Shown here: positions 3,094-36,856 of the stretch, one piece after another
Position numbering within the stretch: the stretch's first letter is position 1
Layout: every line of letters starts with the position of its first letter
Made by a program: the position numbers and the translations under genes
Assembly: GCA_964566535.1 (NCBI GenBank)
Contig: CAZMIO010000001.1
Coordinates: 62,001 to 126,000 of the forward strand
Length of the DNA: 64,000 nt
From: an uncultured Methanosarcinales archaeon
Lineage (GTDB): Archaea > Nanobdellota > Nanobdellia > Woesearchaeales > CAZOXR01
Direction: 5' to 3'
Notes under the pieces: model-generated
Told to the model about the DNA's origin: nothing
Databases searched by the model: none
What the model saw: the letters and a program-made list of their open reading frames with translations, nothing else

Positions 3094-5172
3094 ATGGTTA
3101 ATAGGATGTTAGAACGTATATTGAATCCACTGAAAAGGGCCGCTGTTATAGGTTTAGGACTGGCTGTAGGAGCTACAGCATTAAACCATATGGCTAAGAG
3201 AAATGAATCATTAGATCTTCTATTGAGTTATTTTGGTGCAACTAATGCACATGCGGCTCAACTAGCTCCTGATACTGGAATACCATTTCCTTCTTTACCA
3301 GGTTTTCCTCAACAAGTGGATGCTGGGGCAATTGTTACTGCTGATTTTGTTGGTGAAGATGGAGAACCTGAGATTTATGCTGGCGGAATGGGAAGATTAT
3401 ATGGGTGGGAAACCGATGGACAACCCATAAACAGTAATCCGGATGGAACTTTTTTCCCGTTGGGGAATAATGCTCCTATTGTAGGTATTCCTGCTATGGG
3501 GGAAATTGCTGATGGGATTAGAGCAATAGTTATCCCTGCTGATCGGCTTTATGTCGTTGGTCCTGATGGGCGAGAGATTCTGGATTCTTTGAGTTATGGT
3601 AATGATTCTACTGCTCCTACAACTATAGCTAGTCTCGATGGAGAAAGGATAAGTATAATTGGTAGTGGGAGAGGACAAAGTTCAATTCATGTTTATGATG
3701 TTCACAATCGTGGGGGAGTGTTAGAAGCAGTTACAAGAACAGGATTTCCAATGGGAGCTACTATGGACTCATCTCCAGCAATTGGACAATTAGATCCAAC
3801 TTCTCCTGAGTTAGAATTGGCATGGGGACAAGGAGATTTAATTCAAGCTGTTAATGCTAATGGAATTCCATTCCCGCCATATCCTATTACAATGATTGAC
3901 AGATATGGCTCAGAAGGTTCACCAGCAGTTGTTGATGTTGGTGGAGTTCAATATCTAATAACTGGAGTAGAAAATGATCTTATCATTTCAGGAAATGGTA
4001 GGGTTATTGAAGCTAACGCTGATGCTGATTTTGCTTCAACTTCACCATCAGTTCTCAAAATGCCAGATGGAACAGCAAGAATTTTTGCTAGTAATTATGA
4101 TGGAGGCACTTGGGGATTTGAATTTGATGGTAATATTATCACTCCACTAGTAGGATTCCCTCAGGAAACACAAGGACGTTTAAGAAGTCGTTCCCCTCTA
4201 ATAGGATATTTTGGAGATGATGGGATTCCAAAAGTTGTTCAAGCAGATGTTGATGGCAATATCTACGCATGGTATGCAGAAGGTGGAATGGAAGGGATTC
4301 CAGTTGCACCGTTCCCAATTGATTTAGGCTCACCAATAAGACATATTGCATTAGGTCATTATACGGGTGTTGATGGATTGCATGCTATATTAGCTGCAAG
4401 TGCTGAAGGAAATGTCCACGCTTTAGATTTAGGGTTAGAATCAAGAGCAAGAGATCATCCATGGCCATCATTCCAATACGATGATGCAAACACTGGTAAT
4501 CCTAATTATCAGGAACCACAAGGACAACCACAAAGAGCATGGGATGTTAATGGTGATAATCTGATAAATATAGTTGATTTAATCTTGGTTGCAAGGGATT
4601 TTGGGAAGATGACAACTGGGGCAGCTGATGTTAGTGGAGACGGCAGAGTTAATATTGTGGATTTAATCTTAGTTGCTCAGCATTTTGGTGAAGTTTATGG
4701 TGCGCCATCAATGAGTGCTAGTGAAAGGGTTCCTCATATATTTGATAATGCTTATGAAAAAGCATTGGTGGTTTGGGGAGAAATAAAGCAAGGAGCTGAT
4801 TATGGCGTTTCAATAGGTGATGTAGAGAGAGCTTTGGAATTGTTTGATAAATTAAGAGATGGATATGTTCCAGAAGACATAACTCCTGCTCAAACAGTAT
4901 TAATGAATAATTATCCAGATCCATTTAATCCTGAAACGTGGATACCTTTCATGTTAGGTGAAGGTGGAAATGTTAGAGTCAGCATTTATAATAGAGGAGG
5001 AAGTTTAGTCAGAACATTAGATTTAGGCCATAGAGAGCCTGGTGTTTATGACAGAAAAGATGAAGCAGCTCATTGGGATGGTAGGAATGAGTTTGGAGAA
5101 AAAGCTGCATCAGGATTATATTTCTACAGATTAAATAATGGACCAACAGGAAGAATGATGTTGGGGAAATAG
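3094..5172 (+). CDS. Secreted protein: FG-GAP/VCBS-like propeller repeats + dockerin-like pair + FlgD-Ig/T9SS-like C-terminal domain
   Basis: SSPAIGQLD and GSPAVVDV repeats; WPSFQYDDANTG; DVNGDNLINIVDL and DVSGDGRVNIVDL; NYPDPFNPETWIPF...WDGRNEFGEKAASGLYFYRL. Confidence 0.8.
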   Translation: MVNRMLERILNPLKRAAVIGLGLAVGATALNHMAKRNESLDLLLSYFGATNAHAAQLAPDTGIPFPSLPGFPQQVDAGAIVTADFVGEDGEPEIYAGGMGRLYGWETDGQPINSNPDGTFFPLGNNAPIVGIPAMGEIADGIRAIVIPADRLYVVGPDGREILDSLSYGNDSTAPTTIASLDGERISIIGSGRGQSSIHVYDVHNRGGVLEAVTRTGFPMGATMDSSPAIGQLDPTSPELELAWGQGDLIQAVNANGIPFPPYPITMIDRYGSEGSPAVVDVGGVQYLITGVENDLIISGNGRVIEANADADFASTSPSVLKMPDGTARIFASNYDGGTWGFEFDGNIITPLVGFPQETQGRLRSRSPLIGYFGDDGIPKVVQADVDGNIYAWYAEGGMEGIPVAPFPIDLGSPIRHIALGHYTGVDGLHAILAASAEGNVHALDLGLESRARDHPWPSFQYDDANTGNPNYQEPQGQPQRAWDVNGDNLINIVDLILVARDFGKMTTGAADVSGDGRVNIVDLILVAQHFGEVYGAPSMSASERVPHIFDNAYEKALVVWGEIKQGADYGVSIGDVERALELFDKLRDGYVPEDITPAQTVLMNNYPDPFNPETWIPFMLGEGGNVRVSIYNRGGSLVRTLDLGHREPGVYDRKDEAAHWDGRNEFGEKAASGLYFYRLNNGPTGRMMLGK

Positions 5173-6008: not shown

Positions 6009-7238
6009 ATGCAATATGAGATACACAGAGGAAAAGACACCCATTGTCAACTATGTGCATTTGAGTGGGGAGATAGGATTACTGCTATCGGAGAACATTA
6101 TAGGCTCAAATTTAATTTAGATGGTGATCTTACTGGTGCTACTACTCCATTCGAAACACCTAACTTAGTTTATACAGCTAGAGGAAGAGTTAATGGTTTC
6201 TTGGCTAGTGCTAATTTAGGTGAGCGTGATTCTACTATTTCGGATGATGCTGATTCATTACGTTCTGGTTATTTTGTGATGGAGATGCCAGAAGAAATGC
6301 GATTATTGTTTGGGAATACTGTGGCTAGAGAGCTTCAAAAATTATGTATGGACAATCCTGATGAAATCTTCTCTAGGGCTTCAGGAAGTAGTAGTAATAC
6401 CCAAAGAAAAAACGCAAGATTAACTGAATTAACAGACACATCTCGTTTAGTTCTTCCAGGAGATACGGTTGAGTCTGCTTATGAGTTATTACCCTTAATA
6501 GTTCAAAGAGGTTGTTATAGTGATTGTCCTGGCTGTGAGATTGGAAGTGAGGTTGGTTACAGAGCAGATGATTCAAGTATTAGAGCACAATTGGATTTTT
6601 TCCATAATGAATATCCATTAACAAGCAGAACTTACAAAGGCCTATTAATGGGAGGAGAAGATCCATTAATGTTAGGTACTGATAGATTGGTGGAAATTAT
6701 GCAAACAGCTGAAGCTGAATTTGGATTAAGCAGAAATCCTACAAGAATTGGACTTGATGGGTTTGGGGATTATGATACAACTGAGGGTTTTGCTTATATG
6801 TTTATGAGTTTTAAATCTATTAAAAGAAAAAGTGTTGAAGATCTAAGAAGATTAAAAGAAGCAGGATTAAGATGGGCAAATATTGGTTTAGAGTCTGCTG
6901 ATCAAAGAATATTGGATGAACATTTTCCAAAACAAACTTTAGATGATGTTACTGAAGGGATTGATAAACTAAATGAAGCAGGAGTTAATTTCTCACTAAA
7001 TGTTATAGCTGGTTTAAGAGAAGGGAATGTGGACCATCTATTGAAAACTTCAGAATTCTTAGGAAGTATGGGTTATGATGGAAGGGTTTTTCTTGCACGT
7101 TTTAAGAGATCAAATGGACTTTATGAGTTAAATAATGAAGAGTTTTTTAGGGAAGCTAGGCAATTTGTAGAAGATTATGAAAAACATCCGGGTGTAGATT
7201 GGAGAGCTGTTAAGGCTTATCCAATGGTTTTCCATTAG
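6009..7238 (+). CDS. Radical SAM protein (divergent)
   Basis: CxxxCxxC (CYSDCPGC), GGEDPL, LKEAGLRWANIGLESAD. Confidence 0.85.
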   Translation: MQYEIHRGKDTHCQLCAFEWGDRITAIGEHYRLKFNLDGDLTGATTPFETPNLVYTARGRVNGFLASANLGERDSTISDDADSLRSGYFVMEMPEEMRLLFGNTVARELQKLCMDNPDEIFSRASGSSSNTQRKNARLTELTDTSRLVLPGDTVESAYELLPLIVQRGCYSDCPGCEIGSEVGYRADDSSIRAQLDFFHNEYPLTSRTYKGLLMGGEDPLMLGTDRLVEIMQTAEAEFGLSRNPTRIGLDGFGDYDTTEGFAYMFMSFKSIKRKSVEDLRRLKEAGLRWANIGLESADQRILDEHFPKQTLDDVTEGIDKLNEAGVNFSLNVIAGLREGNVDHLLKTSEFLGSMGYDGRVFLARFKRSNGLYELNNEEFFREARQFVEDYEKHPGVDWRAVKAYPMVFH

Positions 7239-11866: not shown

Positions 11867-13102
11867 TTAGAATACCATTCCTGGAGAAACACCTTGTTTA
11901 TAGGTTACCATGCCTTTTGGACCATAATCAATTCCCTTAACTGTATCTAAGACAAACCTTTGAGCCCTTAATGCAATTTGATTTGGATCAAGATAAAAGG
12001 GGTTACCTCCAGATGCAAGACCCACCGATGAGTTATCCCCAGATACTAGACCTAAACCTGCTCGAATAACTGCATCATATCTATATTCACTTGGTAATTT
12101 TATGATTGGTTTAGGAGATTCATTAGGTAATTTCAAGGTTAAGGAACAATCTGTCAAATTTAGATACAATGTTCCAAGTTGCCCTTCAACTACCATTCTC
12201 CTGTTATTACCTTTACCAATATATTTTCCCATTGATAAATGAACTGGAACACCTGCGTCTGTTTCCAAATCCATTTCAGCACAAGTCTCTCCAATAAGTT
12301 CAATTGGAAGGTCATGTTTTGTTTTTGCCATTGTTATGTACTCATCGCATCTTGCTGTTCTTACGACTGCTTCCTCAACTTTTACCCTTCCTAAATATTC
12401 TTCAAGGGCCATAACTGGTGCTATTGTATGAATTGCAAGGTCAGGAATCATTCCACCACCCTTCGATACATCAATTAAGTGTGGACCTCTGTGGTCTAAC
12501 GTTCCATATAATTCATCCCCTTCAAGGATCTCTACTGTAACAGACATTGGTTTTCCAATTATATCCTCAATCCTTCTTGTTAGATCTGGAGTGAATGGAT
12601 CACCACCAGGAGTTTGTAATGCAAGATCTCCATCAAAATAAAAAGAATTTCCCTTTATTAAACTATCAAGTGCAAGTAATGGTGTAGAATATGAAGCTAA
12701 AAATGATTCAAGCAATGCAATTACTGGATAGTCTCCAACCAATTGCTTAATTGTTTCAAATTGATAATCATCTACTGCGTATGGTTTTTCAACCATTACA
12801 CGGAATCCATTTTTTAATAAATCTTCTGCATCACTAGTATGGACCTCATTAGCATGCCCAAGGATAACTACTGGATCATTTGGTCTAAAGTTCAAAAGAA
12901 GATCACTTAACTTTTGGTCTTCCCTTCTTCTTAGATGAGGAACACCTAAAAAAGGATCAGTTTCAGTTCTTTCCCTTACATCCACTGTTGCAACTACATT
13001 AACAAGATTTTGGCCTTGCATCCTAACTAATGAAGGTGCTAAACATATTTGTAAATAGTCCCCCATACCAACAGCTATAATTTCATCCATATAGTCATCC
13101 AT
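11867..13102 (-). CDS. Divergent Gfo/Idh/MocA-family oxidoreductase
   Basis: N-terminal IAVGMG, VMVEKP, GGGMIPDLAIH. Confidence 0.7.
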   Translation of the reverse strand: MDDYMDEIIAVGMGDYLQICLAPSLVRMQGQNLVNVVATVDVRERTETDPFLGVPHLRRREDQKLSDLLLNFRPNDPVVILGHANEVHTSDAEDLLKNGFRVMVEKPYAVDDYQFETIKQLVGDYPVIALLESFLASYSTPLLALDSLIKGNSFYFDGDLALQTPGGDPFTPDLTRRIEDIIGKPMSVTVEILEGDELYGTLDHRGPHLIDVSKGGGMIPDLAIHTIAPVMALEEYLGRVKVEEAVVRTARCDEYITMAKTKHDLPIELIGETCAEMDLETDAGVPVHLSMGKYIGKGNNRRMVVEGQLGTLYLNLTDCSLTLKLPNESPKPIIKLPSEYRYDAVIRAGLGLVSGDNSSVGLASGGNPFYLDPNQIALRAQRFVLDTVKGIDYGPKGMVTYKQGVSPGMVF

Positions 13103-13199: not shown

Positions 13200-13982
13200 A
13201 TGTCATGGGGAATGAAAAACAGATTATCAAAAACAATTGATCCGAAAACAGGAAGAAGTGTTATGCTTGCAGTAGATCATGGTTACTTTCAAGGTCCAAC
13301 AACTGGGTTAAGGAATCTAAGAAAAGCTATAGATCCGTTGTTGCCTTTTGCTAATTGTTTGTATATAACAAGAGGGATGGTAAGGAATGTTGTTGATCCT
13401 GGCACAAATGTTCCTATATTCTTACGTGTTTCTGGTGGACCAAGCATTTTACAAGAAGATCTTTCTGATGAACACATAACTGTTTCTATGGAGGAAGCTT
13501 TAAGGATTAATGCGGTAGGTGTTGGAATGTCGATGTTTGTAGGTGGCAAACATGAATCAAGATCTGTTGCAAATCTTGGAGAACTTGTTAATGAAGCTGA
13601 GGCTTATAATATGCCGGTTTTGGCAATTACTGCAGTAGGTAAGGATATGGTTAGGGATTCTCGGTATATTGGGTTAGCATGTCGGATGGCTGCTGAACAA
13701 GGAGCTCATATAATTAAAACATATTATTGTGAAGGTTTTGAAGAAGTAATTGAAGCAGTAAATGGTGTTCCTGTTGTTATTGCTGGTGGAAAGAAGATTG
13801 AAGAAAAGGCTGCACTTGAGATGGCCTTTAATGCTATAAAGGCAGGTGCCGTTGGTGTTGACATGGGACGGAATATCTTTCAATCAGACAATCCAGTTGG
13901 TATGATTAAAGCTGTAAATGCAGTTGTTCATGATGGAAGAACTGTTGATGAAGCTTTTGAGATCTATCAGAAGAAGGATTAA
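13200..13982 (+). CDS. lsrF: LsrF/class I aldolase-family protein
   Basis: MSWGMKNRL, LAVDHGYFQGPTTGL, IIKTYYC, IAGGKK, GVDMGRNIFQ. Confidence 0.88.
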   Translation: MSWGMKNRLSKTIDPKTGRSVMLAVDHGYFQGPTTGLRNLRKAIDPLLPFANCLYITRGMVRNVVDPGTNVPIFLRVSGGPSILQEDLSDEHITVSMEEALRINAVGVGMSMFVGGKHESRSVANLGELVNEAEAYNMPVLAITAVGKDMVRDSRYIGLACRMAAEQGAHIIKTYYCEGFEEVIEAVNGVPVVIAGGKKIEEKAALEMAFNAIKAGAVGVDMGRNIFQSDNPVGMIKAVNAVVHDGRTVDEAFEIYQKKD

Positions 13983-14701
13983 TTAACTCCTGAAATATAA
14001 ACTATTGTTCCTCTTCTTACTCTGTCGTATAGGCCGATTATGTCGTCATTTCTCATCCTTATGCAGCCGCCAGATAATGGAGTTCCTAAAGAGCCTTCAA
14101 AATTAGTGCCATGGAAATATATACTTCTGTCTCTTGTATTCTTATTACTTCCAGTTAGTCCTTCTAGCCATATCATCCTAGTTAGAACACGGGCAATCTC
14201 ATCATTTGGGAAAAGTCGACTTCTTTTGTATATCTTCCTTATAGTTCCTCTAAATTTCCAGTCTTCAAATTCTTCTCCTTTTTGGGCTGTGTATTGAGGT
14301 CCTTTTCCTGTCTTTCCGTATACTCTTAGTAAACCATGAGGGGTTTTTTTACTGTCTGCCTTGTTACCAAATCCCTTTCTTCCGGTTGAAACTTCATATG
14401 TTGCTTGAACACTGAATCTACCATCTGAATAGCTCCCTACATGAACTTCTTGTTCTTTTCCTGAGACGACTAATACTGTTGAATAAGTTCTTCCATGAGA
14501 ATCTAGATAAGGGTAAAGGTTTTGTTGTAGTTCTTGGTCTAATCTATCATCTAAGTTTGATCTGTTTACTTGTTTAGGTGCAGTTTGTTCAGCTTCTGGT
14601 CCCGAGGGTATATCTTTAAGATCTGCTTCTTCTCGTTTACAAGATACCATACCTAAGGCTAGTGCAATTGCCATTAGTGCTGAAACATTTCTATTTGCCA
14701 T
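13979..14701 (-). CDS. L,D-transpeptidase (YkuD family) with lipoprotein-type signal peptide
   Basis: VSTGRKG...TPHG and IYFHGT...LGTPLSGGCIRM..DI..LY...GTIVYI; N-terminal ALALGMVSC. Confidence 0.88.
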   Translation of the reverse strand: MANRNVSALMAIALALGMVSCKREEADLKDIPSGPEAEQTAPKQVNRSNLDDRLDQELQQNLYPYLDSHGRTYSTVLVVSGKEQEVHVGSYSDGRFSVQATYEVSTGRKGFGNKADSKKTPHGLLRVYGKTGKGPQYTAQKGEEFEDWKFRGTIRKIYKRSRLFPNDEIARVLTRMIWLEGLTGSNKNTRDRSIYFHGTNFEGSLGTPLSGGCIRMRNDDIIGLYDRVRRGTIVYISGVN

Positions 14702-31113: not shown

Positions 31114-32448
31114 ATGAAAGAGAATAAAGTGGATGGTTTTATCAAGAATCCTAAGAAGGCTTTGTTTAAGCTGAGTATCCCTATAATAATTGGGATGATG
31201 GTTCAAGTACTGTATAATGTAGTTGATACTGCTTTTGTTGGTAGGTTAGGTGCAGAAGCTATTGCTGCTTTGACTTTTTCGTTTCCTTTGTTTTTTCTTT
31301 TGATTGCTTTGAATGCTGGTGTTGCGGCTGGGATGAGCTCAAGAATTTCTCGTTATTTAGGTGAGAAGAAGAAGGAAGCTGCTGAGAATACTGCGATGCA
31401 TGGTTTGTTAATCACTGTTATATTAGCTGTTTTTGTTTTTGTTTTTGGGTTGATGATTTTGAGGCCTTTCTTTTTGTTGTTGGGTGCTGAAGGTAATGTT
31501 TTAGAGCTTGCTGTACAGTATATGACTGTAATTTTGTTTGGAGTATTTTTTATGTTTCCCTCTTTTGTGTTTAATTCAATTTTTGCTGCTCAAGGAGATA
31601 CTAAGACTCCTATGAGAGTTCAAATACTTGCTTTAGTGTTGAATATGGTATTGGATTATGTGTTCATATTTATTTTAGGTTATGGTGTTGCAGGGGCTGC
31701 ATTGGCCACCTCTATTTCATTTGTAGTTGCCTTATTAGTTTATCTGCATTATATTGGGCATAGGTCTTATTTGAAGTTAGAGATGAGTGTGTATAGATTT
31801 TCCCTAGGTATTGTAAAGCAGATAGTTAAGGTTGGTGCTCCTGCTACAATTATGACTTTGTTGTTGTCTGTTTATATGATGTTTATCAACAGATTTATGG
31901 CTCATTTTGGGGTTAATTATGTTGCGGCTTTTGGTATTGCTTCTAGATTAGAAACTGTTGTTGTAATGCCCATGTTAGGTTTTAATATGGCCCTTATGAC
32001 CCTGGTTGGGATGTTTTATGGTGCTAAAAGATTTGATCTTATGAAGGATATCATCTATTATGCGATGAAAATAGCTTTATTGTTTACAGTTGGCATTGGA
32101 ATTGTATTTTATGTTTTACCTTCTATGTTTTTGAGTGTTTTTACTAACGATGCTTTGCTTATTAGTTTAGGTGCTGCTTATTTACGAATAGATGTTTTTG
32201 CTTACCCTCTTATGGCAGTTGGGATGATGATCTCTCGTGCAATGCAGGGAATGGGTGATGGATTGCCAGGATTAGTCATTAATTTAGTTAGGATAGTAGT
32301 TGTTGCAATCCCACTTGCTTACATATTTGTGTTTGTGTTAGGTTTTGGTTATCTATCAATTGCAGTTGCGATGATTATAGGCGGATTTACTGCTTCATCA
32401 ATAGCTTGGGTTTGGTTAAGAATTAGGTTGAAGAAGATGTTGGGTTAG
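31114..32448 (+). CDS. MATE family efflux transporter
   Basis: LYNVVDTAFVGRLG, GDTKTPM, LGYGVAGAALAT; ~12 TM helices. Confidence 0.93.
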   Translation: MKENKVDGFIKNPKKALFKLSIPIIIGMMVQVLYNVVDTAFVGRLGAEAIAALTFSFPLFFLLIALNAGVAAGMSSRISRYLGEKKKEAAENTAMHGLLITVILAVFVFVFGLMILRPFFLLLGAEGNVLELAVQYMTVILFGVFFMFPSFVFNSIFAAQGDTKTPMRVQILALVLNMVLDYVFIFILGYGVAGAALATSISFVVALLVYLHYIGHRSYLKLEMSVYRFSLGIVKQIVKVGAPATIMTLLLSVYMMFINRFMAHFGVNYVAAFGIASRLETVVVMPMLGFNMALMTLVGMFYGAKRFDLMKDIIYYAMKIALLFTVGIGIVFYVLPSMFLSVFTNDALLISLGAAYLRIDVFAYPLMAVGMMISRAMQGMGDGLPGLVINLVRIVVVAIPLAYIFVFVLGFGYLSIAVAMIIGGFTASSIAWVWLRIRLKKMLG

Positions 32449-33284: not shown

Positions 33285-34265
33285 TTACCTAGGAGCTTTA
33301 AGATAATTCCATTGAGTTGGCATTCTTCCTTGAGGGTTGACTTCTAAAGGGTGAGGTGTCCAAGAACCAGCATGATGTATTTTAGTTCCTTGCGTTAATC
33401 TTGCAACAATATCTCCGGATCTATCCATGACATAAATATCATTACCGCCAATTCCGTCCATATTTGATGTGAATGCAATATATTCTCCATCTGGTGACCA
33501 AAATGGTTGGTATTGTTTTATATTTGAAACTGTCAGAATATCTAATTTAGTGCCCCTGGGAGTCATGGTAACGATGTCTTCCCCCAACAATATTATTGAT
33601 TGGTAAGCAATTAAATCTCCTGTAGGGGACCATGCTGGAAATCTATCGGCATCTGTAAGCCTTTCGCTTATTAACTCAACATTAGATCCATTTGAGTCCA
33701 TAACATAAATGGCAGGTAACGTCGACCAGTCTCTTCCGATTGATGTAAATGCTATTCTTTGTGAATCGGGTGGCCAAGTTGGATAATAATCTAAACCTGA
33801 TTGGAAATTAGTTAGATTTCTTCTATTTGATCCATCAGCACCCATTACCCACACATCAACATTCCCTCCCTCACTAGATTCGTAAGCAATCCTAGTTCCG
33901 TCAGGAGACCAATCAGGGCTGTAATTGCTGGACTGATTATTTGTTAGATTTACTTGGCTAGATCCGTCAGAATCCATTACATATATATCTCTATCCAAAT
34001 GATTTCCACTCCTATTTGAAGCGAAAACAATCTGTTGTCCGTCTGGAGAGAATGAAGGGTGCCAGTCATTTGCTGGATGGTTAGAAACATTTGTTTTTTT
34101 AGTTCCATCTGCGTTCATAGTAAAGATTTCATCATTCCCATTCTCGCTTCTAGAATATGCTATCCTTCCTTCTAAGCCCCTGGCAGCAGCAGAAGTTGCT
34201 AGTGCTAGAGCGCCAACTGCTAAAGTAATATAGGTTGCTGTCTTTAATCTTTGTATTAAGTTCAA
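33285..34265 (-). CDS. Secreted TolB-like (PD40) beta-propeller protein
   Basis: Signal peptide; repeats PSFSPDG, PDWSPDG, PAWSPTG, PFWSPDG and IYVMDSDGS. Confidence 0.9.
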   Translation of the reverse strand: MNLIQRLKTATYITLAVGALALATSAAARGLEGRIAYSRSENGNDEIFTMNADGTKKTNVSNHPANDWHPSFSPDGQQIVFASNRSGNHLDRDIYVMDSDGSSQVNLTNNQSSNYSPDWSPDGTRIAYESSEGGNVDVWVMGADGSNRRNLTNFQSGLDYYPTWPPDSQRIAFTSIGRDWSTLPAIYVMDSNGSNVELISERLTDADRFPAWSPTGDLIAYQSIILLGEDIVTMTPRGTKLDILTVSNIKQYQPFWSPDGEYIAFTSNMDGIGGNDIYVMDRSGDIVARLTQGTKIHHAGSWTPHPLEVNPQGRMPTQWNYLKAPR

Positions 34266-35995: not shown

Positions 35996-36856
35996 TTATC
36001 TTTTACCAGTATAGGACCATTTTTGATAACCAGGTAATCCTGCTCTAATATCGGGGCCAATATGTAATCTATTAAAATTAAACCCTCCTACTCCTTCAAA
36101 CATTGGCTCGCCTTGCTCATATAGAAAACCAACTTTTGGATCTGATGTGTAACCATCAATCCCAGTAACCCATATACCGTTAACAGCTACTGGTCCATCC
36201 GAGGTTTTACCGAACTGATTGAGAACTGTTAATCCTAAATCAATGTCTCCTCGTTCTGACAATGAAATCATAATATCAAGTCCTGTTACAACTCCATCTT
36301 GAAACATATCTGACCTAAAATTGTGGGGTTTGACTTCAACGTCTCTATATTCGCGTACTATTCTATCTTCTACATCAGGATTACTATTTGGAAAATCAAT
36401 CCGGACATCAGGAACAACTAATCCATGTTCGTTTCTTCTTGTAACTTCAGCTCTGAAAGCAGAATAGATTTCTTCAAGCTTCTCAGGATCCATCTGGAAA
36501 AAAACTAACTTCATATTATCTCGATAAGGAAATGTATCCATCTTATGAACAGGTAATTCAGTTCTTCTACCTCCTCCTCCAAACATAAAAGAATACCACC
36601 AATTTGGTTGTCCATTATAAGAATCAACAACGTGAGTTTCTAGTTTAGGATCCCAATGTGATTCAACATCACCTAACCCTCTCATAACGTCATATACACT
36701 AAAATAACCGGGTTTGAAAATATCTTCTCTAACTGCTTCAATACCTTCTGTGGGATTAAGAATTGTAGAAGTTTCGTCATCAGTAGTTATCTCAACTACT
36801 CCCCTAATACCTTTTGGCCTTGTATCTCCAGGGTTTAGTTGAAGTCTTAATGACAT
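35996..36856 (-). CDS. Hypothetical protein with internal duplication
   Basis: REDIFKPGYFSVYDVM and RSDMFQDGVVTGLDIM repeats. Confidence 0.65.
   Translation of the reverse strand: MSLRLQLNPGDTRPKGIRGVVEITTDDETSTILNPTEGIEAVREDIFKPGYFSVYDVMRGLGDVESHWDPKLETHVVDSYNGQPNWWYSFMFGGGGRRTELPVHKMDTFPYRDNMKLVFFQMDPEKLEEIYSAFRAEVTRRNEHGLVVPDVRIDFPNSNPDVEDRIVREYRDVEVKPHNFRSDMFQDGVVTGLDIMISLSERGDIDLGLTVLNQFGKTSDGPVAVNGIWVTGIDGYTSDPKVGFLYEQGEPMFEGVGGFNFNRLHIGPDIRAGLPGYQKWSYTGKR

Follow-up and report, generated by a model that had tools for sequence, protein, structure and literature searches.

A TolB-like propeller gene of an archaeon that probably came from Poribacteria and retains a Poribacteria-type C-terminal tail

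Results

The genome of the archaeon studied here (G000; 1.45 Mb, 91% complete) carries a gene for an intact TolB-like β-propeller that ends in a C-terminal tag of Poribacteria type, and we consider it likely that the gene was taken whole, long ago, from a bacterium of that phylum. It lies in a stretch of 64,000 nucleotides, which we call the window and which occurs in seawater and marine metagenomes. The assignment of the donor to Poribacteria is well supported, and we hold it with considerable confidence; the fuller account that we prefer, in which a borrowed propeller gene with an eroded tag would yield an exported binding protein and the tag would be a relic, we hold with moderate confidence. 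The coordinates of the features are collected in Table 1.

Table 1. Positions of the propeller gene, its parts and two further Poribacteria-type genes (window coordinates unless a contig is named)
Feature	Position	Strand	Remarks and basis
PD40 propeller gene with Poribacteria-type tail	33285..34265	-	326 aa, TTG start; ORF, Pfam, alignment
N-terminal hydrophobic helix, residues 1-31	34173..34265	-	AlphaFold helix 2-31; hydropathy peak 1.9
TolB-like PD40 β-propeller, residues 35-302	33360..34163	-	Pfam, AlphaFold, Foldseek
C-terminal tail, residues 308-326	33288..33344	-	predicted disordered; PSSM, AlphaFold, HMM
Tail core, V309-K323	33297..33341	-	
TATA box TTTATAAA	34291..34298	-	33 nt upstream of start; genome-wide peak -33 to -28
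Second Poribacteria-type gene	3094..5172	+	692 aa, dockerin and T9SS-A-like CTD (PFNPETWIP subtype)
Third Poribacteria-type gene	G000:C5:10700-14254		dockerin and Poribacterial CTD subtype

The propeller protein and its tail

Pfam recognises PD40 repeats in the ORF with E=4.8e-38, and the best Foldseek matches to the propeller are TolB chains (1c5k: TM 0.76 over 278 columns, 23% identity); propeller fold and PD40 repeats are shared with E. coli TolB (PDB 1c5k and 2hqs). An earlier reading made from the letters of the DNA (the sequence-only reading) had called an ORF with a PD40 domain and a tail at this locus and had likened the propeller to TolB, and both calls are borne out, the former by ORF, Pfam, PSSM and colinear alignment. 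We rejected the protein as a TolB proper, since it lacks the N-terminal TolB domain and reaches 204 bits against a cut-off of 343 for TIGR02800; it also differs from TolB in that none of the ORFs around it was recognised as a tol-pal gene and in that it carries an extra tail.

In the AlphaFold model, computed from a 36-row alignment, a helix at residues 2-31 precedes a propeller modelled with confidence (mean pLDDT 87.5), and the tail, residues 308-326, is disordered, with pLDDT under 50. Judged by structure model and hydropathy, the protein has both an export signal, in the hydrophobic helix, and an extracellular passenger, in the propeller, and residues 1-31 are predicted to be a signal peptide or a membrane anchor. 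Archaea export proteins by the Sec pathway through such an N-terminal helix. The archaeon would export this protein by the same route, and the product would be a surface or secreted binding protein, whose role, by analogy with the TolB propeller, would be non-catalytic peptide binding.

The C-terminus of the ORF reads ...WTPHPLEVNPQGRMPTQWNYLKAPR. The motif core V.P.G[KR]..T.W..[LIV]K is present within 10 residues of the stop as VNPQGRMPTQWNYLK, with 3 residues between it and the stop. No folded T9SS CTD (TIGR04183/PF18962) was matched on the protein, and the tail is unlike such a CTD in that no β-sheet is predicted, CTD motifs are absent and no translocon was found in the archaeon.

Recognition of the tail

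Scored with an ungapped PSSM built from 51 Poribacterial tails, the query being left out, the archaeal C-terminus ranks first among the 3256 ORFs of the genome with 18.8 bits, the next reaching 1.8. None of 10000 shuffles of its last 40 residues attains this score, and 12 of 113 natural Poribacterial tails score no higher. Thirty-five PD40 homologues have tails that align colinearly with the archaeal one; W302 and W319 are invariant and V309 and K323 nearly so.

For a profile of the terminus, which the sequence-only reading had proposed, the outcome is divided: a local profile HMM built from 153 tails places the archaeal tail first among the 3256 C-termini, but only at E=1.1, which is not significant. 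Its score was not significant with any of the HMMs, whether built from 38, 51 or 153 tails, and the archaeal ORF was not among the matches in whole-ORF searches; the test of the tail was therefore carried by the PSSM. At the DNA level we used a tail pattern that had been loosened so as to fit the archaeal tail, and because its reversed control matched 19 times in 401 archaeal genomes, it is the position of the tail, its reading frame and the homologous domain to which it is attached that make it significant, rather than the pattern by itself.

Distribution of the tail motif

The DNA pattern matched 35, 45, 8 and 42 times in the four named Poribacteria genomes and once, away from any C-terminus, in 46 other named bacteria, where the control matched 7 times; this search covered 50 of 76 genome loci. 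Single matches were found in 5 of 101 genomes from the phylum of a Latescibacterota genome (control 5) and in 1 of 61 from the phylum of an Eisenbacteria genome (control 2). Matches outside Poribacteria in these samples are at chance level. The attribution to a Poribacteria or general FCB type made from the sequence thus stands in its first half but not in its second, the V.P.G[KR] form being at chance level elsewhere. There was no match in 400 archaea of the same order (control 19), nor in 250 archaeal genomes of the same phylum, which partly coincide with the 400 and of which 62 lie outside the order; these two tallies, and those of CTDs and of PPS in the order given below, include the unpublished genomes G136, G211 and G213, and no claim depends on those by themselves.

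From 119 other homologues listed, we chose by eye 38 that bear the tail, a single one of which carried a taxon name, namely Poribacteria. In the 76 named genome loci, the PD40 proteins with a tail belonged to two genomes of Poribacteria; one protein of Latescibacterota has a related tail that lacks V.P.GK. The Poribacterial passengers of the tail are LamG, Kelch, BNR, CBM, PKD/cohesin and PD40 domains. No Pfam or NCBIfam model for the tail was among the matches of 15 and 12 test proteins; the Poribacterial family of PD40 proteins with a 'TWG' tail is not described in either database, and the tail motif itself is unnamed and undescribed. In titles and abstract openings, we found no mention of the tail or of a transfer between Poribacteria and Woesearchaeota.

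A 79-kb contig from a viral collection (L115 and L116; IMGVR_UViG_2740892559_000001) contains two canonical matches to the tail pattern, one of which ends a 264-aa protein adjoining a CTD protein. The contig may be a host-derived region or possibly a transfer vehicle.

Origin of the gene

At E<=1e-35 the archaeal protein is matched by 77 of 151 Poribacteria genomes, in many cases over its full length and at 38-41% identity, and the alignment with the Poribacterial homologues is colinear across the junction of propeller and tail and through the tail itself. Poribacterial proteins made up of a signal peptide, PD40 repeats and a 'TWG' tail (P0006, a DUF5050 protein of Ca. Poribacteria, L117, L142 and L147) share with the archaeal one its length class, the order of its parts and the W-x-V.P.G..W..LK junction, at 33-41% identity. 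The archaeal protein differs from these in being encoded by a single copy with host codons, a TATA box and a TTG start, in a genome where no T9SS-like machinery was found. Sixty relatives gave only weak, partial matches to the propeller protein. When Atlas clusters are shown by features, nine of ten are mainly Poribacteria; the structure search puts other phyla first.

The propeller domain taken on its own gives close best scores (189 bits for Poribacteria, 182 for Chloroflexota). In a propeller tree of 65 rows, the archaeal gene is a long branch with no starred set, beside two non-Poribacterial long branches. In a second tree of 50 rows, from which 15 long or near-copy rows had been dropped, a clade with Poribacteria obtained p=0.7 in the AU test, the constrained tree being 9 lnL better. 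This value does not reject a clade with all Poribacteria, nor does the propeller tree alone place the gene; for a PD40 tree, by which the sequence-only reading would have had the bacterial origin judged, compatibility with Poribacteria stands and a firm placement does not. Since the propeller tree does not decide the origin, the donor assignment rests on the tail and the architecture.

An exhaustive phmmer search, the results of which were dominated by long repeat proteins, returned no close orthologue, and no sister archaeal orthologue suitable for dN/dS was found in the homologue searches. The flanking genes in five relatives gave no synteny matches and hence no empty site. We infer a direction from Poribacteria to the archaeon because a Poribacteria genome holds dozens of copies against one in the archaeon. 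Compared with other bacterial-derived genes of DPANN archaea, this one bears a phylum-diagnostic tag, which converts a vaguely bacterial gene into one with a named donor.

The gene in its archaeal setting

The gene looks native to the archaeon in its TATA box, its host codon usage and the occurrence of the same context in a second contig. Its GC3 is 0.27, against a genome mean of 0.29 and values of 0.41-0.83 in 59 Poribacterial homologues, and its codon fit lies at the 91st percentile among host genes. The archaeal TATA promoter that the sequence-only reading had assigned to each tailed gene is confirmed by TATA-like boxes that precede the two starts by 33 and 22 nt. TTG starts are rare in this genome, being found in at most 12 of the 320 genes with such a TATA box. 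Among the datasets listed as containing the stretch, none is of RNA.

We also weighed the reading that the gene is an artefact or a product of convergence, arising from chimeric assembly, from an error in binning or from a generic propeller that bears such a tail by chance. The propeller is indeed generic, the HMM score of the tail is weak, and three of the four sequencing runs contributed only short contig pieces on the stretch, which leave the tail region without cover. Against this reading, the gene sits inside a 332-kb contig among archaeal genes, its codon usage is that of the host, and its tail combines colinearity with homologues and the first PSSM rank. Moreover, contig L170, a separate assembly though not necessarily from a separate habitat, repeats 10.2 kb of the gene context at 99.82% identity, and none of its 18 differences falls in the gene. 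We regard an artefact or convergence as hardly credible and as already largely refuted.

Fourteen of the 18 differences from L170 cluster in 130 bp inside the MATE gene (31581-31710 of the window), like a recombination tract. A lysine-poor class makes up 123 of the 1095 proteins of the genome (in the window, for example, 6009-7238, 11867-13102 and 35996-36856); its members in the window are low in GC3 and rich in T at third positions, whichever the strand, and most of them have a TATA box of their own. All three Poribacteria-type genes of the genome belong to this class.

The tag in Poribacteria and its wear in the archaeon

Motif matches of at least 8 bits number 122 in 2.4 Mb of the Poribacteria genome G062. 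In 113 of them the stop follows 1-10 residues later; of the remaining 9, 7 stand immediately before a T9SS-A-like CTD and have L in place of the W. This W-to-L variant forms a motif-like linker directly before the CTD in 10 of the 44 CTD proteins, a position like that of the linker of T9SS type A CTDs. In a structure model, the fused linker comes out disordered (residues 1-50 have pLDDT under 50), like the RgpB linker that is cut by PorU, as outlined in PMC4804311; given this model, we dropped the idea that the tail binds a CTD in trans. The A/S-V start of the Poribacterial tail resembles, and no more than resembles, the cleavage preference for a small residue followed by Ile that is outlined in PMC11969387, where the shortest known CTDs are given as 40-55 aa, against about 19 aa for the tail.

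SprA-, PorU- and PorV-like genes are present in all four Poribacteria genomes inspected (G061-G064; e.g. L197-L203), of which the SprA-like (about 2200 aa) and PorU-like (about 2100 aa) fall below the family cut-offs and the PorV family, with 11-17 matches per genome, lies above its own. As outlined in PMC3909097, no T9SS-like structural genes had been found in Poribacteria; Table S9 of that paper may concern the CTD proteins. Cohesin matches number 11 and 17 in Poribacteria, and no SprA, PorU, PorV or cohesin was found in the 91% complete archaeal genome. From these observations, we hypothesize that the Poribacterial tag is probably the detached linker of a T9SS-like domain, acting as a processing or anchoring signal.

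The archaeal tail keeps the V, P, G, T, W, L and K of the core, and departs from the Poribacterial tails in an E before the V and in N-Y after the W. Neither the E nor the N occurs at these places in any of 153 Poribacterial tails; the residue after W is G, A or S in 113 of 113 and in 153 of 153, and the W-N form has no match in 81 Poribacteria genomes. We read the loss of these small-residue positions as erosion after what would have been the release of the tail from its bacterial reader. A worn relic, which the archaeon's own machinery would not read, is a likelier interpretation of the tail than an export signal still at work. Mean conservation towards Poribacteria is 41% for the tail core, 40% for the propeller and 16% for the signal region; the parity of the first two values counts against a relic and would fit continued selection. 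The eroded tail can be regarded as a natural mutant, which suggests that the bacterial reader holds the small residues before V and after W.

Further Poribacteria-type genes and CTDs in the order

The second tailed gene that the sequence-only reading had placed some 30 kb away is real, and profile searches identify a dockerin and a FlgD_ig domain in it. The CTDs of the two dockerin genes are 53-57% identical to Poribacterial CTDs and 50% to each other, and a CTD tree of 98 columns gives neither of them a resolved position. Of the repeated acquisition proposed earlier, the greater nearness of each CTD to Poribacterial ones thus stands, and the tree adds no resolution; repeated acquisition from Poribacteria is plausible on these identities. 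Genes of this kind lie in clusters in Poribacteria, so that they may also have arrived in a single block and been dispersed later. For the three tailed genes of the genome the phylum indicated is one and the same, a situation uncommon among relatives of this archaeon, and all three are old. Inside the second protein, residues 551-567 match the tail PSSM weakly (5.5 bits) at a distance of 40 residues from the CTD that follows; genuine fused linkers are separated from the CTD by 6 residues, so this match is probably accidental.

T9SS-A-like CTDs are matched in 33 of 400 other genomes of the order Woesearchaeales (including L151-L169 and L205-L211). Five of eight CTD loci that we read (in G016, G178, G174, G073 and G001) have clear archaeal flanks as judged by matches to G000, the remainder showing the gene alone, being truncated by the end of a contig or being less clear-cut; several of the loci in clear archaeal context have TATA boxes. 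From 19 loci we extracted 11 CTDs, of which 10, including that of a genome of the same family, are of non-Poribacterial type and one (G108) is Poribacterial. The latter belongs to a second Woesearchaeales lineage (L204; G108:C167:72-3194, minus strand), in which a protein of at least 1041 aa combines PD40-like repeats, a lipase-like motif (GHSMGG), a dockerin and a Poribacteria-type CTD; its GC3 of 0.30 is like that of host genes, and its contig is only 3.2 kb long. The CTD subtype might serve as a barcode of donor or host across Woesearchaeales.

Partnership or shared habitat

Bacterial hosts for DPANN archaea have been proposed, as a question still open, and extracellular bacterial-type proteins of Woesearchaeota have been read as hints of association with bacteria (both as outlined in PMC8204110 and PMC12352652). 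Three Poribacteria-type genes in one genome supply a concrete pair to examine, this member of the Woesearchaeota and pelagic Poribacteria. A host relationship between the two is plausible; that Poribacteria are the host or partner of this archaeon, as the sequence-only reading would suggest of its bacterial donor, we consider doubtful.

In one form of such a relationship, the archaeon would live on Poribacteria, as hosts or prey, and actively dock on them: it would have kept the captured tag together with the dockerins and CTDs to bind the surface machinery of the partner, with PorV-type barrels, sortase-like proteins and cohesins as proposed targets. The genes are three, with two types of tail, at three loci; the receptor candidates enumerated above are plentiful in Poribacteria and were not found in the archaeon, and the core residues of the tag are retained although the codons are host-like. 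The stretch is found in seawater metagenomes, and free-living seawater Poribacteria exist, as outlined in PMC7883664; PMC8204110, as cited, lends the general notion of bacterial hosts. What counts against docking is that the archaeal tail no longer has the nearly invariant G behind its W or the small residue ahead of its V, and that all three genes are old (about 40% identity for the propeller, 53-57% for the CTDs), a recent transfer being absent. We also compared the 1095 proteins of the genome with 2.4 Mb (43%) of G062, and, of the 167 matches, those at 45% identity or more or with low lysine, inspected by eye in this single genome slice, added no Poribacteria-specific gene to the three tailed ones. 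Nor does another bacterial-type gene of the window, which encodes a YkuD L,D-transpeptidase domain (13979-14701, minus strand; E=3e-16) behind a lipoprotein-like signal, point to such a partner: its nearest Atlas clusters are bacterial (Pseudomonadota, Bacteroidota) but not Poribacteria, it has no match in three Poribacteria genomes, and with no Poribacteria signal we rejected it as a host marker. Docking seems to us unlikely on balance. We give equally little weight to the full scenario in which the archaeon lives on free-living Poribacteria, has repeatedly captured their surface genes and displays the labels of its host (TWG tail, dockerin, T9SS-like domain). If it were true, the labels would dock on the cohesins and T9SS-like barrels of the host, and a DPANN archaeon would have a bacterial host that can be named, phylum-specific tails being host barcodes across Woesearchaeales.

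It is a stronger possibility, though one that we place somewhat short of even, that Woesearchaeales opportunistically collect genes for secreted proteins from many diderm neighbours with no specific partnership, the three Poribacterial genes reflecting a shared habitat, many such donor genes and possibly one block transfer. The CTDs scattered over the order, in archaeal context at the five loci named above and nearly all of non-Poribacterial type, speak for this, as does the large target that Poribacteria offer, with some 113 tail genes and 44 CTD genes over 2.4 Mb. On the other side, the tailed genes of G000 are of Poribacterial subtype in three of three cases, against one of 11 CTDs from other relatives, and the two CTDs of G000 are not each other's closest relatives. 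Such scavenging is compatible with the account that we prefer, a propeller gene borrowed whole with its tag since worn; ecology is the sole difference.

PPS genes

The PoK/PPS pair was considered as a further link to Poribacteria and rejected: the named best matches of the PPS protein of G000 are from Woesearchaeota or Nanoarchaeota, and 22 of 301 genomes of the order carry it. Going by these matches, PPS is inherited within Woesearchaeota. A PPS pathway in Poribacteria has already been published (PMC7883664, in outline). We note archaeal-type PPS genes in Poribacteria at L310:9969-10712 (G062) and in L333 (G038); the Poribacterial PPS scores 320 bits (64%) against a Woesearchaeales homologue and 231 bits against Thermococcus PPS, which, for the two archaeal references compared, may be a hint that Woesearchaeales are connected with the transfer already published.
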